Of a stretch of 64,000 bases of DNA, positions 53,458 to 63,926 are shown piece after piece. This stretch comes from Candidatus Hecatella orcuttiae. GTDB lineage: Archaea > Thermoproteota > Bathyarchaeia > Hecatellales > Hecatellaceae. Location: the NCBI GenBank assembly GCA_002011035.2, contig MTLY02000001.1:288001-352000 (forward strand), read 5' to 3'. How positions within the stretch are numbered: position 1 is the stretch's first letter; the number at the start of each line of letters is the position of its first letter. Both the position numbers and the translations under genes were made by a program. The notes under the pieces were generated by a model that did no database searches, had not been told where the DNA came from, and saw nothing but the letters and a program-made list of their open reading frames with translations.

Positions 53458-54855
53458 ATGGACTACCTAACCAGAATGGGAGACGGCCGACCGGTAAGAA
53501 TGAGCAAAGAGCAGATAAAAGCCGACATCGAAGCCGGAACCAAGGACGCGGCGGAAAAAGCCCACGTCCCCGAGCTTTCAGGAGCCGAACAAGAGCATCT
53601 GCTGGAGATCATCACCGACCCCAACCGGCTGGTAGCCGTGGAGCCGGGGAGAGAAGTCGTCCTCACCCACGACGTAGGGCCTTTGAAGGTGATGGCCGAC
53701 CAGTCCAACAGCGGAGTGAGCATCCCATGCTCCCGGGAGCAAGCCATGTGCATCTACGAGAAAGCCTTCAGCGCCGACACCGCCGAGCTGGGGCACATCG
53801 ACTACAGCTTCAAACCCGTTAAACCCATCATCACCCAGGAGCAATCGGTCCTGCAGAACGTCCTGCACATGACCATCCTCCCCATCTTCTACGGAGCCAT
53901 GCCTAACCTAGGCCTATACTACGCCCCAGACGGACCCTTCCCCGAACCCATCGGGCTCATCAAGGACCGCAAGATAGGGGAAGCAAAAGAATCCATGGAA
54001 AACGCCGCCCACAGGTTTGTGGAAGACCTAGAATACATCACCGTGAGACTCTACGAGGTAGGCTTGGACGCCTTGAACATCGACACCACCGGCGCCGGAG
54101 GCGACGCAGACTTCTACGCCTCCCTTACCGCCACGGAAAAGATAAAGAAGGAATGCCCCTACCTCTGCGTGGAAATGGGCATGGCGGGAGAATTCATCCT
54201 AGGATTCCACACCGAGCTGAAATATCAAGGCGTCAAACTGGCGGGACTCTGGCCTCACCAGCAAGCCAGCCTCGCTGAAAAGGCAGGAGTGGACATCTTC
54301 GGCCCGGTGGTCAACACCAAGCCTTCTCTGTCCTTCCCCCTCAACATCGCCAGAGCAGTCACCTTGGTCAAGCACTGCGTCAAAGAATCCAAAATCCCCA
54401 TCCACGTCAACATGGGCATGGGCGTTGGGGGAATCCCCATGTACGAAACTCCGCCGGTGGACGCTGTGACCCGGGCCAGCAAGGCAATGGTTGAAATCGC
54501 CGAGGTAGACGGCTTATAGGTGGGAGTGGGCGATCCCTTTGGGATGCCCATAGCTCACTGCGCCGCCAGCGGCATGGGAGGCATCAGGACGGCGGGAGAC
54601 ATGGTGGCTAGGATGCAGATGCTGAGATATAGGTTGAAGGACGCGAAGGACTACGTGGCCAAGAAGCTGGAAACCGACACCATGGCTCTGCGGGACGAAT
54701 TTGAGATGAGAAGGCTGAGGGAGAGGCTCAACATCGGCACTATCACAGGCGTCCCAGGGGTCGCCAGGGGCCTCGAAGCCAAAGCCCGAATCGCCGAGAT
54801 CCTCGGCATCCGCATCAACGCTGTCGAACGCCTTAAGGAACTGGTGAAACTCTAA
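53458..54855 (+). CDS. mtbB: Dimethylamine methyltransferase MtbB, Pyl at codon 354 (TAG 54517-54519)
   Basis: TRMGDG N-terminus; VDGL-O-VGVGDP matches the MtbB Pyl motif; ORF continues in frame for 111 aa. Confidence 0.95.
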
Positions 54856-54863
54856 AGAGCCAA

Positions 54864-54936
54864 GCCCAGAGCCACCGCCCACCGACCCACGCGTGAAGCG
54901 AGGGGGATGAGGGAACGGCTAAGCCTCTGGGCCACA
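54864..54936 (+). ncRNA. Box H/ACA-like guide RNA complementary to the mtbB UAG context
   Basis: GCCCAGA/UCUGGGC stem, pocket CCACC + UAAGCC, CCGA/GAUGAGG K-turn, ACA at 54934-54936. Confidence 0.82.
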
Positions 54937-55198
54937 AACCCCATCTTCCTTTTTTTGAGCCGGAAGTATTGTGAAGGCTGATCTTAGAAAAAGTTAAATT
55001 CAGTGCACCGCTAGCCTTTTTAGAGGTAAAAATTGAAAAAGGACGGCAGCCGCCGAGCCTGCGTATTTCAGGTGGAAGCCAAGGAAACGGCACCTGATGT
55101 AACGGTGTCTCATCTGGGAGGCAGCCTTGGAAAAACCATGCCAAATATGTTATATTTGACATAGCCTTTTTTGGGGAAGCCTTCTTTTAGGTGATTTA

Positions 55199-59322: not shown

Positions 59323-59362
59323 AAAAATAGAGGGGAAATTTAGGCTGATTTAATCAGCCAAG

Positions 59363-60847
59363 CTACCCGCGCGCAGCCCTGTCCGCTTCTTTGACGATAG
59401 CCTCCATGGAGGCCAACAGGTCTTTGTCGATGGGTGGAACCTGGTGAGTCTTCAAGATTTCCTTCGACTTTTGGTAGGCCAAGTAGGCTAGGTCCTTCTT
59501 GTCTGTTTTTTTCTCCCAAGTTCCTCGCATGTCCCTGTTCAGCAGCGTGGGGAAGGATTCCTCCGCGTCCATCCATTGGAGGGTGTGCTTCTTGGAGAGG
59601 AAGTTCCCCCCAACCCCCACCTCTTTTATGAGGTCTGTCGCCAAGGTGTCATCGTTCACAGAGATGCCCTTGGTAGCCCTCCGGCACATGGCTATGATAT
59701 CGTGGTCGATGATCAGCTGCTCCAAGCTGAACGTTTGACCCAGCTCCAGCATCCCAGCGCCGTAGATGGCATTGGCCCCCGCCAGCATGGGCAGGAGGGT
59801 GGTTATGGTCTTCTCGTGGGCAGCCTGCGCGTCGGGGAGCTTGGCATCAGCCTAGGTGCCTGCCACATAGCTGGGCAGCCCATAATACTGCGCAAGTTGC
59901 GAAACAGCGGCGCTTATCAGCCCCAGCTCCGGCGCTCCCACGGGTGCTGTGGCCGTCCTGAGGTCGAACATGGTGGTGGAGCTGCCGTAGATGACAGGTG
60001 CACCGGGCTCTGTCAGCTGGGCGAGGACGATGCCTGAGAGCACTTCTGCGTTATGGGTCACCAAAGTGCCGGCCAACGTCACGGGGCCTGTAGCTCCAGA
60101 CATGGCCATGCTTAGCACGTTCACCGGGATGTCGTAGCGGGCTCCTTGGATGATGACTCCGCAGGCGTTGGCGTGCAGCTGGAGGGGACTGGTGGGACAC
60201 AGCAACACGGATATGATGGGCCTCTTCCTGAAGGCTTCTTCGTCGCCTCCATAGTAGGCGACACCCATCTTGAAGTAGTACTCCATGTGCTCAGCCACCG
60301 GGTCGACGTGGTGGAAGTGTTTTCTCGTCCCCACCCAGGAAGTGAAGGTTTCGTGGACGTCCGAAGCCAAGCCTTCCATCAGAAGCTCTCTGGCTGCACA
60401 GGGCAGGGAGAAGAAGTCGATGGTGGAGCACCAATCTGCAAGGACAGCGGCTTCATAGACGTCTTGATTGTTCGACTCTCGAATGGAATTGGTTTCATAT
60501 TCGTAGGTGTACAGCCCCGTGCCGAAGGTAGTGTTACCCACTTTTCTTCCAGCCTCTAGAAGCACGTCGCTTCCCTTTTCACGGCCGGCTAAAAGGACTC
60601 GGCCGGGACACTTGTGGAGGGCGTCCTTAACGATGTGCTCAGGAATCCTCACCATGCGTTTCACCGGGTCAACGTCACATCCTCCCTTTTTGAAGATTTC
60701 CAAAGCCTCTTCATGGTAGACTCCAACTCCGCTGGTCTTCAATACGTCCATCGTCTCCGAGTTGATGCGGTCTAGGGCGTCTCTGGAAAGTAGCTCCAAC
60801 CTAGCTCCTTGAACCATGTCAAGTCCGGCGAAGAGTTTCACTGGCAT
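59363..60847 (-). CDS. mttB: Trimethylamine methyltransferase MttB, Pyl at TAG 59852-59854
   Basis: [25 protein letters not shown] matches the MttB Pyl motif; ATG 60847 follows the GGAGGTGA RBS. Confidence 0.95.
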
Positions 60848-61818: not shown

Positions 61819-61861
61819 GGAAAGATAAAAGTACAAATTGGTGAACTGCGAAAAAATTGAT

Positions 61862-61929
61862 GGGGGATCGGCCGGGGGGCCACAAGAGTTCTAACCTCTT
61901 GGAGCCGGGTTCGACTCCCGGATCCCTCG
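61862..61929 (+). tRNA. pylT: tRNA-Pyl (CUA)
   Basis: 7-bp acceptor, 1-nt linker, GGCC/GGCC D stem with 4-nt loop, 6-bp anticodon stem CAAGAG/CTCTTG, loop TT-CTA-AC, 3-nt variable loop, CCGGG/CCCGG T stem, G73; CCA not encoded. Confidence 0.96.
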
Positions 61930-61969
61930 GCACAGGAAAAGGGCTTATTTAAAATCTATGTGAGCTTCC

Positions 61970-62812
61970 ATGGGCGATTCCTCCATCACCTTTACCCCCA
62001 GCCAAAAGCAGCGTTTGATAGAGCTTGGTGCTGAGCTCAGCAAACTGGAAGCTTCTTTTACCTCCCCCAGAGAGCGGGAAAAGGTTTTCAACAGCCTAGC
62101 TGAGAAGCTTACGAGAAAAAACCGGGAAACGATAAAGAAGCTGAAGGACAGCGGAAAAAGGCCTCCCCTTAAAACCGTTGAAAGTAAGCTGGTGAACGTT
62201 TTAACCTCTCTGGGGTTCGTTGAGGTTGTCACTCCCACGATAATTCCGAAGACCTTCATCAGCCGAATGGGGATCGAAAAGGAAAGCAACCTCTGGCAGC
62301 AGATACTCTGGCTGGACGGCCGGCGATGCCTCCGCCCCATGCTGGCACCTAACCTATACTTCGTAATGGGGAAGCTTAGAAGATTCTGGAAGCCTGTGAG
62401 GATATTCGAGGTTGGATCCTGTTTTCGAAAAGACACTCGGGGGTCCTTCCACACCGAAGAGTTCACCATGCTCAATTTCGTGGAGTTAGCTCCTGATGCA
62501 AACCCTCGGGAACGTTTGGCGGAGCTGATAGCCAAGACTATGGGAGGCCTCGGCATCGGATCCTACGAGGTTCGATCTGAAAGCTCAGAAGTCTACGGGG
62601 AAACCTTAGATGTCTTGGTCAAAGATGTGGAGATAGGCTCCGCTGCCATAGGGCCTAAGCCCATGGATGTCAACTGGGGCATCGTTGACCCTTGGGTAGG
62701 GTTGGGCCTCGGCATTGAAAGAGTAGCCATGGTGACAGGGAACCATCACCCCATAGCGAGGGTGAGTAGAAGCCTCATATACCTCAACGGCGCTAGGTTG
62801 GATATCAAATAG
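61970..62812 (+). CDS. pylSc: Pyrrolysyl-tRNA synthetase catalytic domain (no fused N-domain)
   Basis: QKQRLIELG, CLRPMLAPNLY, FEVGSCFRK, EFTMLNFVE, VYGETLD, PWVGLGLGIER. Confidence 0.96.
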   Translation: MGDSSITFTPSQKQRLIELGAELSKLEASFTSPREREKVFNSLAEKLTRKNRETIKKLKDSGKRPPLKTVESKLVNVLTSLGFVEVVTPTIIPKTFISRMGIEKESNLWQQILWLDGRRCLRPMLAPNLYFVMGKLRRFWKPVRIFEVGSCFRKDTRGSFHTEEFTMLNFVELAPDANPRERLAELIAKTMGGLGIGSYEVRSESSEVYGETLDVLVKDVEIGSAAIGPKPMDVNWGIVDPWVGLGLGIERVAMVTGNHHPIARVSRSLIYLNGARLDIK

Positions 62813-62816
62813 GGCT

Positions 62817-63926
62817 GTGGAATTGATGCCCCTGACGAGCACCGCCTTGAAGGGCGAGGCTTCCCGCGAGGTTCAGGAAATTCTGGCAAAAGCCGCTGAG
62901 GGAAACTTAGAGGAGAAGGACGCCCTACGCTTGATGAAAGCCGAAGGCATAGACGACTTGTTCGCCCTGTTCAACACCGCCCATGAGATAAGAAAACGAC
63001 AGTTCGGCGACAAGGTTTTCGCCTACGGCTTCGTCTATTTTTCCACCTACTGCCGGAACAATTGCTCCTTCTGCCTTTACCGGCGTGCAAACCGGTGTGC
63101 TCCCCGCTATAGGAAAAAAGCAGACGAAATAATGGAGATAGCGGAGATGTTGAAGAAGTCGGGAGTGCACCTCATCGACTTAACCTCGGGGGAAGACCCT
63201 CAAATCCATTCGGAGAAAGGGTACCGCAGACTGTTGAGCTACGTGGAGAGGCTGAAGAAGGAATTGGACATGCCTCTCATGGTTTCACCGGGGGTTTTAC
63301 CGAAAACCGTTCTCAGGGAGTTGGGAAGAAAAGGTTTGGACTGGTATGCCCTCTACCAGGAAACCCACAACCGCCTTCTTTTCTCCAAGCTCCGCTGCCG
63401 CCAAGACTATGATGAAAGGATGAAAGCCAAGACCTACGCCAGAGAAGAGGGAATGCTTATTGAGGAGGGAATTCTCATCGGTGTAGGCGAAAGCAGGGAA
63501 GACGTGGTCGATTCCGTCTACCAGATGAAAAAGATGAAAGCCCACCAGGTTAGAGCCATGGGCTTCATACCTCAGAGAGGAACTCCTATGGAAAGCCGCC
63601 CCTCGCCGCCGATTCTCGAAGAAATGAAGGCCATATCTTTGATGCGCCTTGTCCACCCAGATAGGCTGATCCCAGCTTCCTACGACATCGACGGTCTTAA
63701 AGGCCTAGGCCTACGCCTGATGGCTGGGGCCAACGTGGTGACCTCCCTGATACCTCCAAGGTTTCACCTCCGGGGAGTAGCCCAGGCGGAGTTGGATGTG
63801 GAAAGCAGCCTGCGAACGCTTTCTGGCGTAAAACCCTACCTCCAAAAGCTGGGATTGGAGGTAGCTTCCCTGAAGAGTTACAGGAAATGGATTGAAGAAG
63901 AGAAAGCTCGCCTCCCGGGGAAATAG
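62817..63926 (+). CDS. pylB: Methylornithine synthase (radical SAM)
   Basis: YGFVYFSTYCRNNCSFC, DLTSGED, LIPASYDIDG, GANVVTSLIP. Confidence 0.95.
   Translation: MELMPLTSTALKGEASREVQEILAKAAEGNLEEKDALRLMKAEGIDDLFALFNTAHEIRKRQFGDKVFAYGFVYFSTYCRNNCSFCLYRRANRCAPRYRKKADEIMEIAEMLKKSGVHLIDLTSGEDPQIHSEKGYRRLLSYVERLKKELDMPLMVSPGVLPKTVLRELGRKGLDWYALYQETHNRLLFSKLRCRQDYDERMKAKTYAREEGMLIEEGILIGVGESREDVVDSVYQMKKMKAHQVRAMGFIPQRGTPMESRPSPPILEEMKAISLMRLVHPDRLIPASYDIDGLKGLGLRLMAGANVVTSLIPPRFHLRGVAQAELDVESSLRTLSGVKPYLQKLGLEVASLKSYRKWIEEEKARLPGK

Follow-up and report, generated by a model that had tools for sequence, protein, structure and literature searches.

How is a UAG that is to be read as pyrrolysine (Pyl) told apart from one that ends a protein? 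The common answer is that UAG stops are few and tolerated. It does not fit the genome of the uncultured archaeon Candidatus Hecatella orcuttiae, since TAG terminates 239 of its 945 ORFs of at least 250 aa, about a quarter, and the question arises there at mtbB, a dimethylamine methyltransferase gene with an in-frame Pyl codon, which lies on the forward strand of the window (the whole 64,000-nucleotide stretch of DNA analysed here) at 53458-54855. The first-pass annotation had proposed that an H/ACA guide RNA behind mtbB targets the U of the gene's own UAG. Direct reading finds mtbB, its UAG, the parts of the hairpin, the K-turn, the ACA and both pocket strands where that annotation had placed them.

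The mtbB gene and the machinery of its host

The ORFs at 53458-54519 and 54520-54855 share one frame, and with the TAG at 54517-54519 read through, Pfam Dimeth_Pyl covers residues 2-461 of the mtbB product (E 1e-206); the stop of the gene is the TAA at 54853-54855. The window matches both PYLIS_2 and PYLIS_3 of Rfam, each within coding sequence. The PYLIS covariance model (Rfam RF02509) matches directly after the UAG, with the PYLIS_2 match covering 54517-54616 on the forward strand (71.3 bits, gathering score 36); this coding-region element is separate from the hairpin, which the match excludes. Contigs from four DNA runs carry no differing letters where they overlap the stretch, and the single diverged relative among them (X9) spans 54300-54652 only, with the hairpin lying outside.

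The genes pylT, pylS and pylB are found at 61861-63926. All four H/ACA proteins are also encoded: Cbf5 (with TruB_N, TruB_C_2 and PUA domains), Nop10, Gar1 and L7Ae, with two proteins of the L7Ae family in all. The earlier proposal had been made to hang on the presence of cbf5, and the gene is there, PUA domain included, alongside those of its partners.

The hairpin and its relatives

The hairpin, also on the forward strand, occupies 54864-54932 and begins 9 nt past the mtbB stop. The sequences GCCCAGA (54864-70), UCUGGGC (54926-32), CCGA (54882-85) and GAUGAGG (54906-12) read as annotated, but the lower stem, which had been given as 7 bp, gains an eighth pair, G54871-C54925, so that 54864-54871 pairs with 54925-54932; because this pair extends the stem, 5+5 nt remain for the pocket (5+6 when the pair opens). 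The 5' pocket (guide) strand is CCACC (54872-54876) and the 3' strand UAAGC (54920-54924), with an optional sixth pair from C54925. The upper (GA) stem, with its strands at 54877-54885 and 54911-54919, was assigned from the sequence and by homology with the fold of the relatives L127 and L128: G77-C19 (that is, G54877-C54919), C78-G18 and C79-G17 pair, C80/A81 form an internal loop, C82 and C83 are paired, and G84 and A85 belong to the putative K-turn. The latter reads CC-GA-CCC / GGG-GAU-GA-GG, with its C-stem (CCC/GGG) and the apical hairpin CGC-GUGAA-GCG at 54886-54905 and the 3-nt bulge GAU and the sheared G09 A10 at 54906-54910. An ACA box stands at 54934-54936, exactly 14 nt (54920-54933) from the pocket-closing pair G54877-C54919, and a run of seven T (54950-54956) is the likely archaeal transcription stop for mtbB and hairpin together. 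No conserved TATA-like or promoter-like element was found in front of the hairpin, and no H/ACA or other Rfam family matches it or its relatives.

Archaeal H/ACA RNAs, as described in PMC2377435 and PMC4652768, have a lower stem of at least 7 bp, a pocket, a GA stem with K-turn and an ACA 14-15 nt away; the ranges applied here were 7-9 bp for the lower stem, 5-8 nt (5') and 5-6 nt (3') for the internal loop, and about 10 layers for the GA stem. By these published criteria the assignment of the predicted hairpin to the H/ACA type is supported. The K-turn and the ACA at 14 nt stand as the first-pass annotation had them. The upper stem is irregular (a 2x3-4 internal loop, 9 vs 11 nt); the upper helix of the archaeal H/ACA RNAs described in PMC2377435 never has more than one bulged nucleotide. 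The minimum-free-energy fold (z -2.2) recovers the lower stem and differs in the upper one, and the K-turn fold proposed here is predicted from the motif and from the relatives, not from that fold. In minimum-free-energy folds the internal loops are 5/5(6) in this hairpin, 6/6 in L127 and L128, 5/4 in L029 and 7/6 in L114.

Among the matches listed, two metagenome mtbB loci, L127 and L128 (protein 76-77% identical), carry the hairpin with compensatory stem changes. Both fold unaided: the lower stem has 8 bp, the pocket is 6/6 with ACA at 15 nt, and the upper stem consists of 6 bp, a C.A, a bulged A and tandem G.A/A.G, an anatomy that corresponds to what PMC4652768 describes as the '10/6/9' type. 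None of 200 shuffles equals their stability (z-scores -4.8 and -4.3). Over the three sequences none of the eight lower-stem pairs is broken and three are changed on both sides, and one upper-stem pair is swapped from C-G to U-A, while GGCUAAGCC in the 3' pocket strand, the GA/GAUGA bases of the K-turn and the ACA are invariant. A diverged version stands at two Methanomethylicia mtbB loci, L029 and L114, where each hairpin is followed by a T8 run. Neither has an ANA at the right distance, and both keep a 7-bp lower stem. The upper stem and K-turn of L114 are of the H/ACA kind, and it shares the (G/A)AUGA that is invariant in the other three; in L029 the K-turn is degenerate, with G.A + C.U in place of the tandem G.A, and the pairing with the UAG flanks is still kept. 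The hairpin is, by comparison of these sequences, a real, conserved RNA element, presumably transcribed as RNA.

This hairpin accompanies mtbB across two classes. BLAST over the 14 genomes of the family gives only short chance matches and finds it in none of the 13 others, and a covariance model (R1) run over the 151 genomes of the class finds it in none of the 150 others; these genomes share the rRNA and tRNA but lack this mtbB. R1 is blind to diverged copies, since it misses L029 and L114. Four weak R1 matches (E 0.015-0.24 per genome) were rejected, since each falls within an ORF of 207-351 aa and none of them folds. There is no such hairpin at the mtmB, mttB and mtbB2 of the Hecatella genome, nor an H/ACA-like one at the mtmB of genome G301 or the mttB of genome G328. 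Simple hairpins, or none at all, are seen at the mtbB loci of Hydrothermarchaeum type (L046, L131), of Methanomethylophilaceae, Methanohalarchaeum and Hadarchaeota, and at L129.

Pairing between the pocket and the UAG flanks

Both pocket strands are fully complementary to the sequence around the UAG, with 6+5 bp about U54517 and A54518, which stay unpaired in the pocket. GGCUUA (54511-54516) forms six Watson-Crick pairs with 54920-54925 (-6.4 kcal/mol), and GGUGG (54519-54523), opened by the G54519 of the UAG itself, forms five with 54872-54876 (-6.8 kcal/mol). The pseudo-guide duplex has an energy of -22.3 kcal/mol; the threshold of -16 kcal/mol given in PMC4652768 was computed with another program. 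The target pattern GGCTTATNGGTGG occurs twice in all over the two strands of the 1,747,726-bp genome, the second time inside an unrelated ORF (C3:26986/26992), and with G-U allowed five genomic sites pair 10/10 with the pocket, two of the five wholly by Watson-Crick pairs (5+5). A loose H/ACA descriptor parses 19 places of the genome in 28 ways, against 10 parses in a reversed-sequence control. When the 1.5 kb upstream is searched for the best guide-type site, the other 26 parses (18 places) score 10-22, and this hairpin with the mtbB UAG scores 29 (26 in the 5+5 parse). Because the pattern is rare in the genome and the score lies above those of the control hairpins, the match exceeds chance. 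When the uridines of each whole locus are ranked with pockets taken from independent minimum-free-energy folds of each hairpin, the U of the UAG comes first in every one of the five: of 233 here, 384 in L127, 423 in L128, 1222 in L029 and 869 in L114. A free bipartite scan without structural constraint, which has low power, puts the UAG first in 2 of 152 loci (this one and L080) and, among the five hairpin loci, in this one only. Genome-wide guide searches for other Pyl codons gave thousands and hundreds of matches, their criteria being far too permissive.

These figures bear on one rival account of the hairpin, that it is a stable 3' end or terminator with no guide role, its K-turn-like motif, ACA and complementarity having come together by chance. 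It does directly precede the oligo-T run, simple hairpins end other archaeal mtbB genes (L070, L081, L046), and the descriptor's matches to the reversed sequence speak for the same account. We nevertheless think it quite improbable, given the invariance of GGCUAAGCC, GA/GAUGA and ACA beside covarying stems, a complementarity that is an outlier among the controls with only two genomic sites, and the recurrence of that complementarity in other letters in Methanomethylicia.

It is in L029 and L114 that this recurrence is seen. All nine pocket bases of L029 (CAACC/UACA) pair with GGUUG/UGUA, and the pairing amounts to 4+6 bp in L029 and to 5+5 with one G.G in L114. Relative to the present locus, three pairs are changed on both sides, U-A to G-C at -3, C-G to U-A at -4 and G-C to U-A at +5, and position -5 is G.G in Methanomethylicia. 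The covariation of pocket and UAG flanks that the annotation had looked to is therefore found in part, in these three pairs between this locus and Methanomethylicia. L127 and L128, the most canonical of the hairpins, fit their own UAG poorly, by 5+3-4 bp and one step out of register (GCUUA:UAAGC 5, GGU:ACC 3), with one pocket base unpaired on each side; their position +5 is A.A, both sides having changed without compensation, and in the canonical register their pseudo-guide duplex reaches only -6.5 kcal/mol. Since there are five loci in three lineages among the matches listed, the covariation is thin (by our own estimate, p about 0.01). Our leading reading, put forward tentatively as possible and short of probable, makes the hairpin a box H/ACA-type RNA of one hairpin, carried in the mtbB 3'UTR and directing pseudouridylation at the gene's own UAG.

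The hairpin might also be an ordinary H/ACA guide whose target is a different RNA, whether rRNA, tRNA or sRNA, and which happens to lie behind mtbB, its fit to the UAG being a coincidence helped by the G+C-rich, repetitive Val-Gly codons. The canonical register of L127 and L128 does predict GCUUAG-UN-UGGUU(A/G), a target other than the mtbB site, and a tRNA-Glu site pairs 10/12 with the L127 guide; the known archaeal guides described in PMC7991803 and PMC11077068 act on rRNA, tRNA and Sulfolobus crRNA. Neither rRNA operon, however, holds a site of at least 10/11 with the present guide in any register tried (best 9/11) or one reaching 10/12 with those of L127 and L128, the tRNA-Glu site does not fit the present guide, and the best of 24 tRNAs (found without an intron search) gives 8/10. 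No site of the usual class, in the rRNA or in these tRNAs, thus fits the guide as well as the mtbB UAG does, and the equal or better match there that would have told against the first-pass annotation is absent; over the whole genome there is the second perfect site at C3:26986/26992, which favours another target. The 13 family and 150 class genomes, which share the rRNA and tRNA and lack this mtbB, yielded no copy of the guide, and in two classes the hairpin stays with mtbB, its pocket changing along with the UAG flanks, all of which makes another target improbable. Elsewhere in G301 and G328 the Methanomethylicia pocket has further exact matches, but these stand in unrelated, non-homologous coding contexts and were taken as chance.

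A third account keeps the pairing and drops the modification: the 3'UTR would join the surroundings of the UAG, through the pocket, a second helix or both, as a structural recoding or regulatory element. L7Ae on the K-turn would possibly hold the pairing, Pyl insertion might be raised or mtbB translation tuned, and ribosomes at the true stop would melt the structure; binding of L7Ae to K-turns in mRNA is described in PMC5539422. Plain long-range helices are indeed found in paralogous genes. The mtbB2 of this genome forms 13 Watson-Crick pairs between +8..+20 and the first 13 nt of its 3'UTR; among its relatives L082/L110 and L109 have 13-14 bp at +6, and L193 and L204 10-11 bp at +9, and between L028 and L082 four helix pairs are changed on both sides with none broken over 11 shared positions. 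In mttB, GCCAAGCU(A), 9 nt past the Pyl UAG, is complementary to sequence across the terminal stop, both in this genome and in G328. In 13 of 153 mtbB loci the strongest complementarity between gene and 3' flank lies from -20 to +30 of the UAG, with about 5.5 expected. Since paralogous Pyl genes thus pair their 3'UTR with the UAG region without H/ACA geometry, the pairing at mtbB may act structurally as well, and L029, without ACA and poor in K-turn, retains it.

The second helix, which we call helix B, pairs GUGGGCG at 54526-54532 on the forward strand (target +9..+15) with 54876-82 in the 5' half of the hairpin, a 7-bp alternative that excludes the upper stem. The hairpins here and in L127, L128 and L029 each contain a 6-mer complementary to the target at offset +9, the varying position being G-C, C-G, C-G and U-A, respectively. 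At 6-8 bp, helix B is not significant at any single locus; the 7 bp here score 20 by our own count, against a 95th percentile of 22 for shuffled pairs.

The pocket pairs also straddle the codon, and 3' arm pairing starts at the G of the UAG, so that they would form no downstream roadblock, being already melted with the UAG in the A site. This argument draws on ribosome footprint sizes. Further, the ACA at 14-15 nt, the 10-layer GA stem and the K-turn would be superfluous for a plain helix, yet they are invariant here and in L127 and L128, and part of the double complementarity follows automatically from the Val-Gly-Val-Gly codon repeat. Pairing without modification seems to us, on balance, somewhat unlikely, yet it is a serious rival to the guide reading.

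How the UAG might be marked, and known systems

The observed structure, conservation, complementarity, partial covariation, link to mtbB, H/ACA proteins and Pyl system can be joined into a mechanism of guided pseudouridylation. The hairpin would be transcribed as the 3' untranslated end of the mtbB mRNA, with the oligo-T run after it; L7Ae would bind the K-turn, and Cbf5-Nop10-Gar1 the lower stem and ACA. The pocket would then dock on GGCUUA-UA-GGUGG, either in its own mRNA or in a sister copy, placing U54517 in the active site of Cbf5 for isomerisation to pseudouridine (Psi). PsiAG should keep its pairing with the CUA anticodon of tRNA-Pyl and be read less well by the release factor, so that the UAG at 54517-54519 would be biased to pyrrolysine in a genome where UAG is otherwise an ordinary stop. 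For typical unpaired UN targets the ACA is dispensable according to PMC7075261, and the Sulfolobus ACA-less guides described in PMC11077068 function with 8-11 bp and mismatches; Pyrococcus proteins take foreign guides according to the same paper.

That a natural, cis-encoded H/ACA guide makes Psi of the U of one UAG, and so marks it for Pyl over termination where UAG is a common stop, is open to real doubt. The hairpin is probably a new use of a known RNA class. It shares its anatomy and the unpaired UN with the archaeal single-hairpin H/ACA sRNAs (Pyrococcus Pab/Pf, Haloferax sR-h45, Sulfolobus sR115/sR435), for which PMC2377435, PMC4652768 and PMC11077068 describe lower stems of 7-9 bp, ACA at 14-15 nt, a K-turn with tandem G.A and 8-11 bp of target pairing. 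It differs from them in lying in a 3'UTR, in belonging to no Rfam family, in its irregular upper stem and in its proposed target, a codon in the mRNA of the preceding gene instead of rRNA, tRNA or crRNA. The Methanomethylicia copies resemble the ACA-less H/ACA RNAs of Pyrobaculum and Sulfolobus islandicus, which are active in vivo and in vitro (PMC11077068; PMC7075261): they have no ACA and keep the pocket, and L114 keeps the K-turn, but L029 and L114 retain a 7-bp lower stem where those RNAs, as described, have none.

If true, the marking would give a codon-specific answer to how Pyl UAG and stop UAG are discriminated. A stop codon would for the first time be modified naturally under the direction of a guide, and an archaeal H/ACA RNP would have its first mRNA target, archaeal H/ACA targets beyond rRNA being called unknown in the account of PMC7991803. 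Chemical marking of one UAG by a guide RNA would also be a new recoding principle, and nature would be using the same trick as engineered nonsense suppression. Karijolich and Yu reportedly showed in 2011 that an engineered H/ACA snoRNA, with its pocket around the U of the stop, pseudouridylates nonsense codons, and that PsiAG is read through; their system is said to be an artificial one in yeast, in which near-cognate tRNAs insert Ser or Thr. Here, by contrast, a natural guide would favour a cognate suppressor, tRNA-Pyl.

Even without Psi, 3'UTR pairing near Pyl codons in several genes, backed by covariation, would be a new class of Pyl recoding signal. A bolder extension is that there is a family of such 3'UTR signals in Bathyarchaeia and Methanomethylicia, whose members would be of H/ACA type in one clade of mtbB and simple long-range helices in mtbB2 and mttB.

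Like PYLIS_2 and PYLIS_3, the hairpin is an RNA feature tied to a Pyl UAG, but PYLIS is a local structure of the coding sequence after the UAG, and the hairpin lies about 345 nt off in the 3'UTR with pairing that straddles the codon. We know of no dedicated elongation factor or binding protein for Pyl. There is a resemblance, and a resemblance only, to the SECIS elements of archaea and eukaryotes, as a 3'UTR hairpin downstream of a recoded in-frame stop with a core of K-turn type; the eukaryotic SECIS described in PMC1874613 has a K-turn-like G.A core and is bound by an L7Ae-family protein. Unlike the mtbB hairpin, SECIS elements work with a dedicated elongation factor and do not pair with the flanks of the codon.

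The mtbB gene and the hairpin behind its stop codon

Read through its in-frame TAG (54517-19, forward strand, taken directly from the sequence), mtbB occupies 53458-54855 on the forward strand and ends in TAA; Pfam Dimeth_Pyl covers residues 2-461 of the read-through product (E 1e-206). Nine bases 3' of that stop, on the same strand, begins a hairpin for which no matching Rfam family was found. It has a lower stem of eight pairs (GCCCAGA(G), 54864-71, with (C)UCUGGGC, 54925-32), an internal loop or pocket with facing strands CCACC (54872-76) and UAAGC(C) (54920-24/25), a standard K-turn with C-stem, three-base bulge and tandem G.A (CC-GA-CCC, 54882-88, with GGG-GAU-GA-GG, 54903-12), and an ACA (54934-36) set 14 nt from G54877-C54919, the pair that closes the pocket; 3' of it come seven consecutive Ts (54950-56). 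Both pocket strands are exact complements of the GGCUUA and GGUGG that flank the U and A of the mtbB UAG. On direct reading, the first-pass annotation had placed the gene, the UAG and all the hairpin parts correctly, including the K-turn, the ACA 14 nt from the pocket and the perfect pairing of both pocket strands; the lower stem was rightly located but is one pair longer than was counted there.

The closest metagenome mtbB genes among the matches listed, L127 and L128 (proteins 76-77% identical to that of Ca. Hecatella), carry the same hairpin directly 3' of the stop, on contigs that end some 80 nt past it. Folded alone, each forms a lower stem of 8 bp and a 6/6 internal loop, with the ACA at a distance of 15 nt from this loop. 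The upper stem has 6 bp, then C.A, one bulged A and tandem G.A, with GAU or AAU as the bulge. The fold energies are 4.3-4.8 sd under those of shuffles, none of 200 being equally stable. They match known archaeal H/ACA guides as described in two papers: the '10/6/9' architecture derived from crystal structures and validated guides (PMC4652768), and the rules that helix 1 has 7 bp or more and that an ANA lies 14-15 nt from the target (PMC2377435). The Ca. Hecatella hairpin differs by an A-to-G change that gives an extra pair (G77-C19), a 5/5 pocket ('10/5/9') and ACA at 14 nt; its upper stem, with an internal loop (C80, A81 against G13-C16), is less regular than those of known guides. In the three-way comparison every lower-stem pair is kept, three of them with changes on both sides; one upper-stem pair goes from C-G to U-A, and GGCUAAGCC, the G-A bases of the K-turn and the ACA are invariant. 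By these comparative sequence criteria, the hairpin is a genuine and conserved RNA of the H/ACA type.

Its distribution follows that of mtbB, which is found in this genome alone of the 14 in the order, in 4 of 301 sampled genomes of the class and in 2 of 62 Methanomethylicia. BLAST did not find the hairpin in the 13 other genomes of the order, and a covariance model, blind to copies of the diverged Methanomethylicia type, did not find it in 150 further genomes of the class. Since no conserved promoter-like element was found upstream of the hairpin and it starts 0-10 nt past the mtbB stop, it is most simply taken as part of the mtbB mRNA.

Fit of the pocket to the pyrrolysine codon

Scanned with a loose H/ACA descriptor, the genome yielded 28 parses, spread over 19 places, and a reversed-sequence control 10, so the shape by itself is not rare. 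The best guide-type site within 1.5 kb upstream scored 10-22 for 26 parses at 18 other places and 29 for the mtbB hairpin; that the hairpin has no guide role at all seems very improbable. The pattern GGCTTATNGGTGG occurs twice on the two strands of the 1.75-Mb genome, and with G-U permitted there are five sites at 10/10 pairs, two of them purely Watson-Crick. Besides the mtbB site, the sole other perfect match (GGCUUA-UC-GGUGG, G000:C3:26986-26998) lies on the sense strand inside an unrelated ORF of contig 3; an active guide might hit it as an off-target. An equal or better target among stable RNAs, for which the first-pass annotation had proposed a search, did not turn up: the best site in either rRNA operon, in any register tried, makes 9/11 pairs, and the best among 24 tRNAs, from a search without introns, 8/10. 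A guide for some other target is therefore improbable as well; an rRNA guide would be expected in relatives, whereas the hairpin goes with mtbB and was not found in their genomes.

When pockets were taken from independent MFE folds and each uridine of a locus was scored as an H/ACA target, for five loci from three lineages, the U of UAG ranked first of 233 uridines in Ca. Hecatella, 384 in L127, 423 in L128, 1222 in L029 and 869 in L114. L029 is the mtbB locus of Ca. Methanomethylicus mesodigestus (protein 71% identical; the locus is identical in L130), and L114 that of another Methanomethylicia genome. Both show a lower stem of 7 bp, a pocket, an upper stem and a T8 run, and neither has an ANA; the K-turn is good in L114 and degenerate in L029. 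The L029 pocket is fully paired, CAACC with GGUUG and UACA with UGUA, a nine-base fit in the right register that is improbable by itself. The covariation of pocket and UAG flanks that the first-pass annotation had proposed to test is partly borne out: relative to Ca. Hecatella, three pairs are changed on both sides in L029 and still paired (-3, U-A to G-C; -4, C-G to U-A; +5, G-C to U-A), but -5 is lost there (G.G), the single loss, and +5 is A.A in L127 and L128. By a rough estimate, the compensation between these two loci alone would have p of about 0.01. Other exact matches to the Methanomethylicia pockets in genomes G301 and G328 were rejected as alternative targets, being sited in unrelated coding sequence.

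The weakest link of the case is the fit of L127 and L128 to their own UAG. There GUA follows UAG, with an A opposite in the guide, and because either side of the pocket has one base more, only 5+3(4) pairs surround the unpaired UA; no rRNA site was found for the canonical-register target GCUUAG-UN-UGGUU(A/G). Known guides accept weak 5'-guide pairing and three unpaired target bases (PMC2377435) and work with 8-11 bp including mismatches (PMC11077068), so the poor fit is not disqualifying.

Pairing of 3'UTRs with UAG regions, and what it may do

The second mtbB copy (L028, G000:C3:408040-408372 and 3' flank, reverse strand) has no such hairpin. Instead, nt 1-13 of its 3'UTR form 13 Watson-Crick pairs with positions +8..+20 past the Pyl UAG. 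At +6/+9, its relatives (L082/L110, L109, L193 and L204) have helices of 10-14 bp; L028 and L082 differ on both sides of four pairs, with no pair broken. This helix looks like a long-range, PYLIS-like element. In mttB (reverse strand; Pyl UAG at 59852-54), GCCAAGCU(A), 9 nt past the Pyl UAG (59838-59845), is complementary to AGCUUGGC (59357-59364) across the terminal UAG stop (59363-59365), beyond which a UGA lies two codons on; the mttB locus of the Methanomethylicia genome G328 has the same pairing as GCCAAGCUA/UAGCUUGGC. Also, the mttB 3'UTR contains AUCAGCCUA, a match to UAGGCUGAU at the Pyl codon. Even at the hairpin-bearing loci of Ca. Hecatella, L127, L128 and L029, the hairpin holds, in its 5' half, a sequence complementary to target positions +9..+14; this pairing is incompatible with the upper stem of the hairpin and has one varying pair (G-C, C-G, C-G and U-A, respectively). 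Pairing of the 3'UTR to the UAG region is thus a theme that does not always take H/ACA geometry, and both the plain helices and the recurring +9..+14 pairing favour a structural, Psi-free role, which for the hairpin is rated only somewhat less likely than the H/ACA reading. Plain pairing has no need of the conserved features, namely the K-turn, the 10-layer GA stem and an ACA at 14-15 nt, and pairs straddling the codon must already be melted when it is in the A site, so that an effect on decoding needs a lasting mark.

For these reasons the reading chosen, tentatively and at less than even odds, is the full H/ACA chain: a guide-made Psi at the mtbB UAG and an effect on its decoding. Karijolich and Yu reportedly found in 2011 that PsiAG made by an engineered guide is read through (cited in PMC7991803), and PsiAG would presumably still pair with a CUA anticodon. 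One speculation is that the hairpin, lying within reach of the terminating ribosome, would fold best on mRNAs whose ribosomes dropped off at UAG; folding mostly on terminated mRNAs might then make a self-correcting loop. At the level of titles and opening lines of abstracts, the papers listed mention neither a natural guide RNA that acts on a stop codon nor an H/ACA link to pyrrolysine; archaeal H/ACA RNP targets other than rRNA are stated as unknown (PMC7991803), and crRNAs are added as targets (PMC11077068).

The mtbB 3' flanks of L082 and L109-L112, from a Bathyarchaeia genus, hold a conserved K-turn-bearing three-way-junction RNA (GCGCUAG - UGAC - stem - GGAUGA - small hairpin - CUAGCGC) followed by an oligo-T run, with no Rfam family match; the flank of L082 is the same as that of L110 (genome G199, which belongs to the class of Ca. 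Hecatella).

H/ACA proteins, the pyrrolysine system and UAG use

Genes for Cbf5, Nop10, Gar1 and L7Ae are all in the genome; cbf5, whose possible absence the first-pass annotation had raised, is present with TruB_N, TruB_C_2 and PUA domains. The Cbf5 ORF (G000:C3:211101-211860; L005:1516-2259) begins at TruB_N profile position 22, its N-terminal part lying outside the frame, and may reflect a split gene or an intron, as known for cbf5 of Crenarchaeota. The genome assembly is a MAG whose contamination is 4%, and its two rRNA operons (G000:C2:464353-470232 and C3:1-4683) are unlike each other. The 16S match of 2169 nt against a 1478-position model and the 23S spans of 3190 and 3857 nt suggest insertions or introns, and the two 23S copies, which differ in sequence, would be due either to operon heterogeneity or to the contamination.

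Some 7 kb downstream of mtbB and its hairpin lie tRNA-Pyl (pylT, 61861-61931), then a C-terminal-type PylS ligase (61970-62812) and PylB (62817-63926). In this genome with a full pylT-pylS-pylB cluster, TAG is the stop of 25% of the ORFs with 250 aa or more (239 of 945), a setting in which it would help to have a means of picking out the few Pyl codons; a second in-frame stop lies within 10 codons in 78 of the 208 TAG-ending ORFs examined. Contigs C1 and C3 carry twelve MtmB-family and four MttB-family genes, with an in-frame TAG in one of each only, so that non-Pyl paralogs are many. The mtmB UAG context, GGGCUUA-UAG-GGAC, has the same GGCUUA arm as mtbB, and the 3' guide strand of the hairpin would thus fit mtmB too, with 6 bp.
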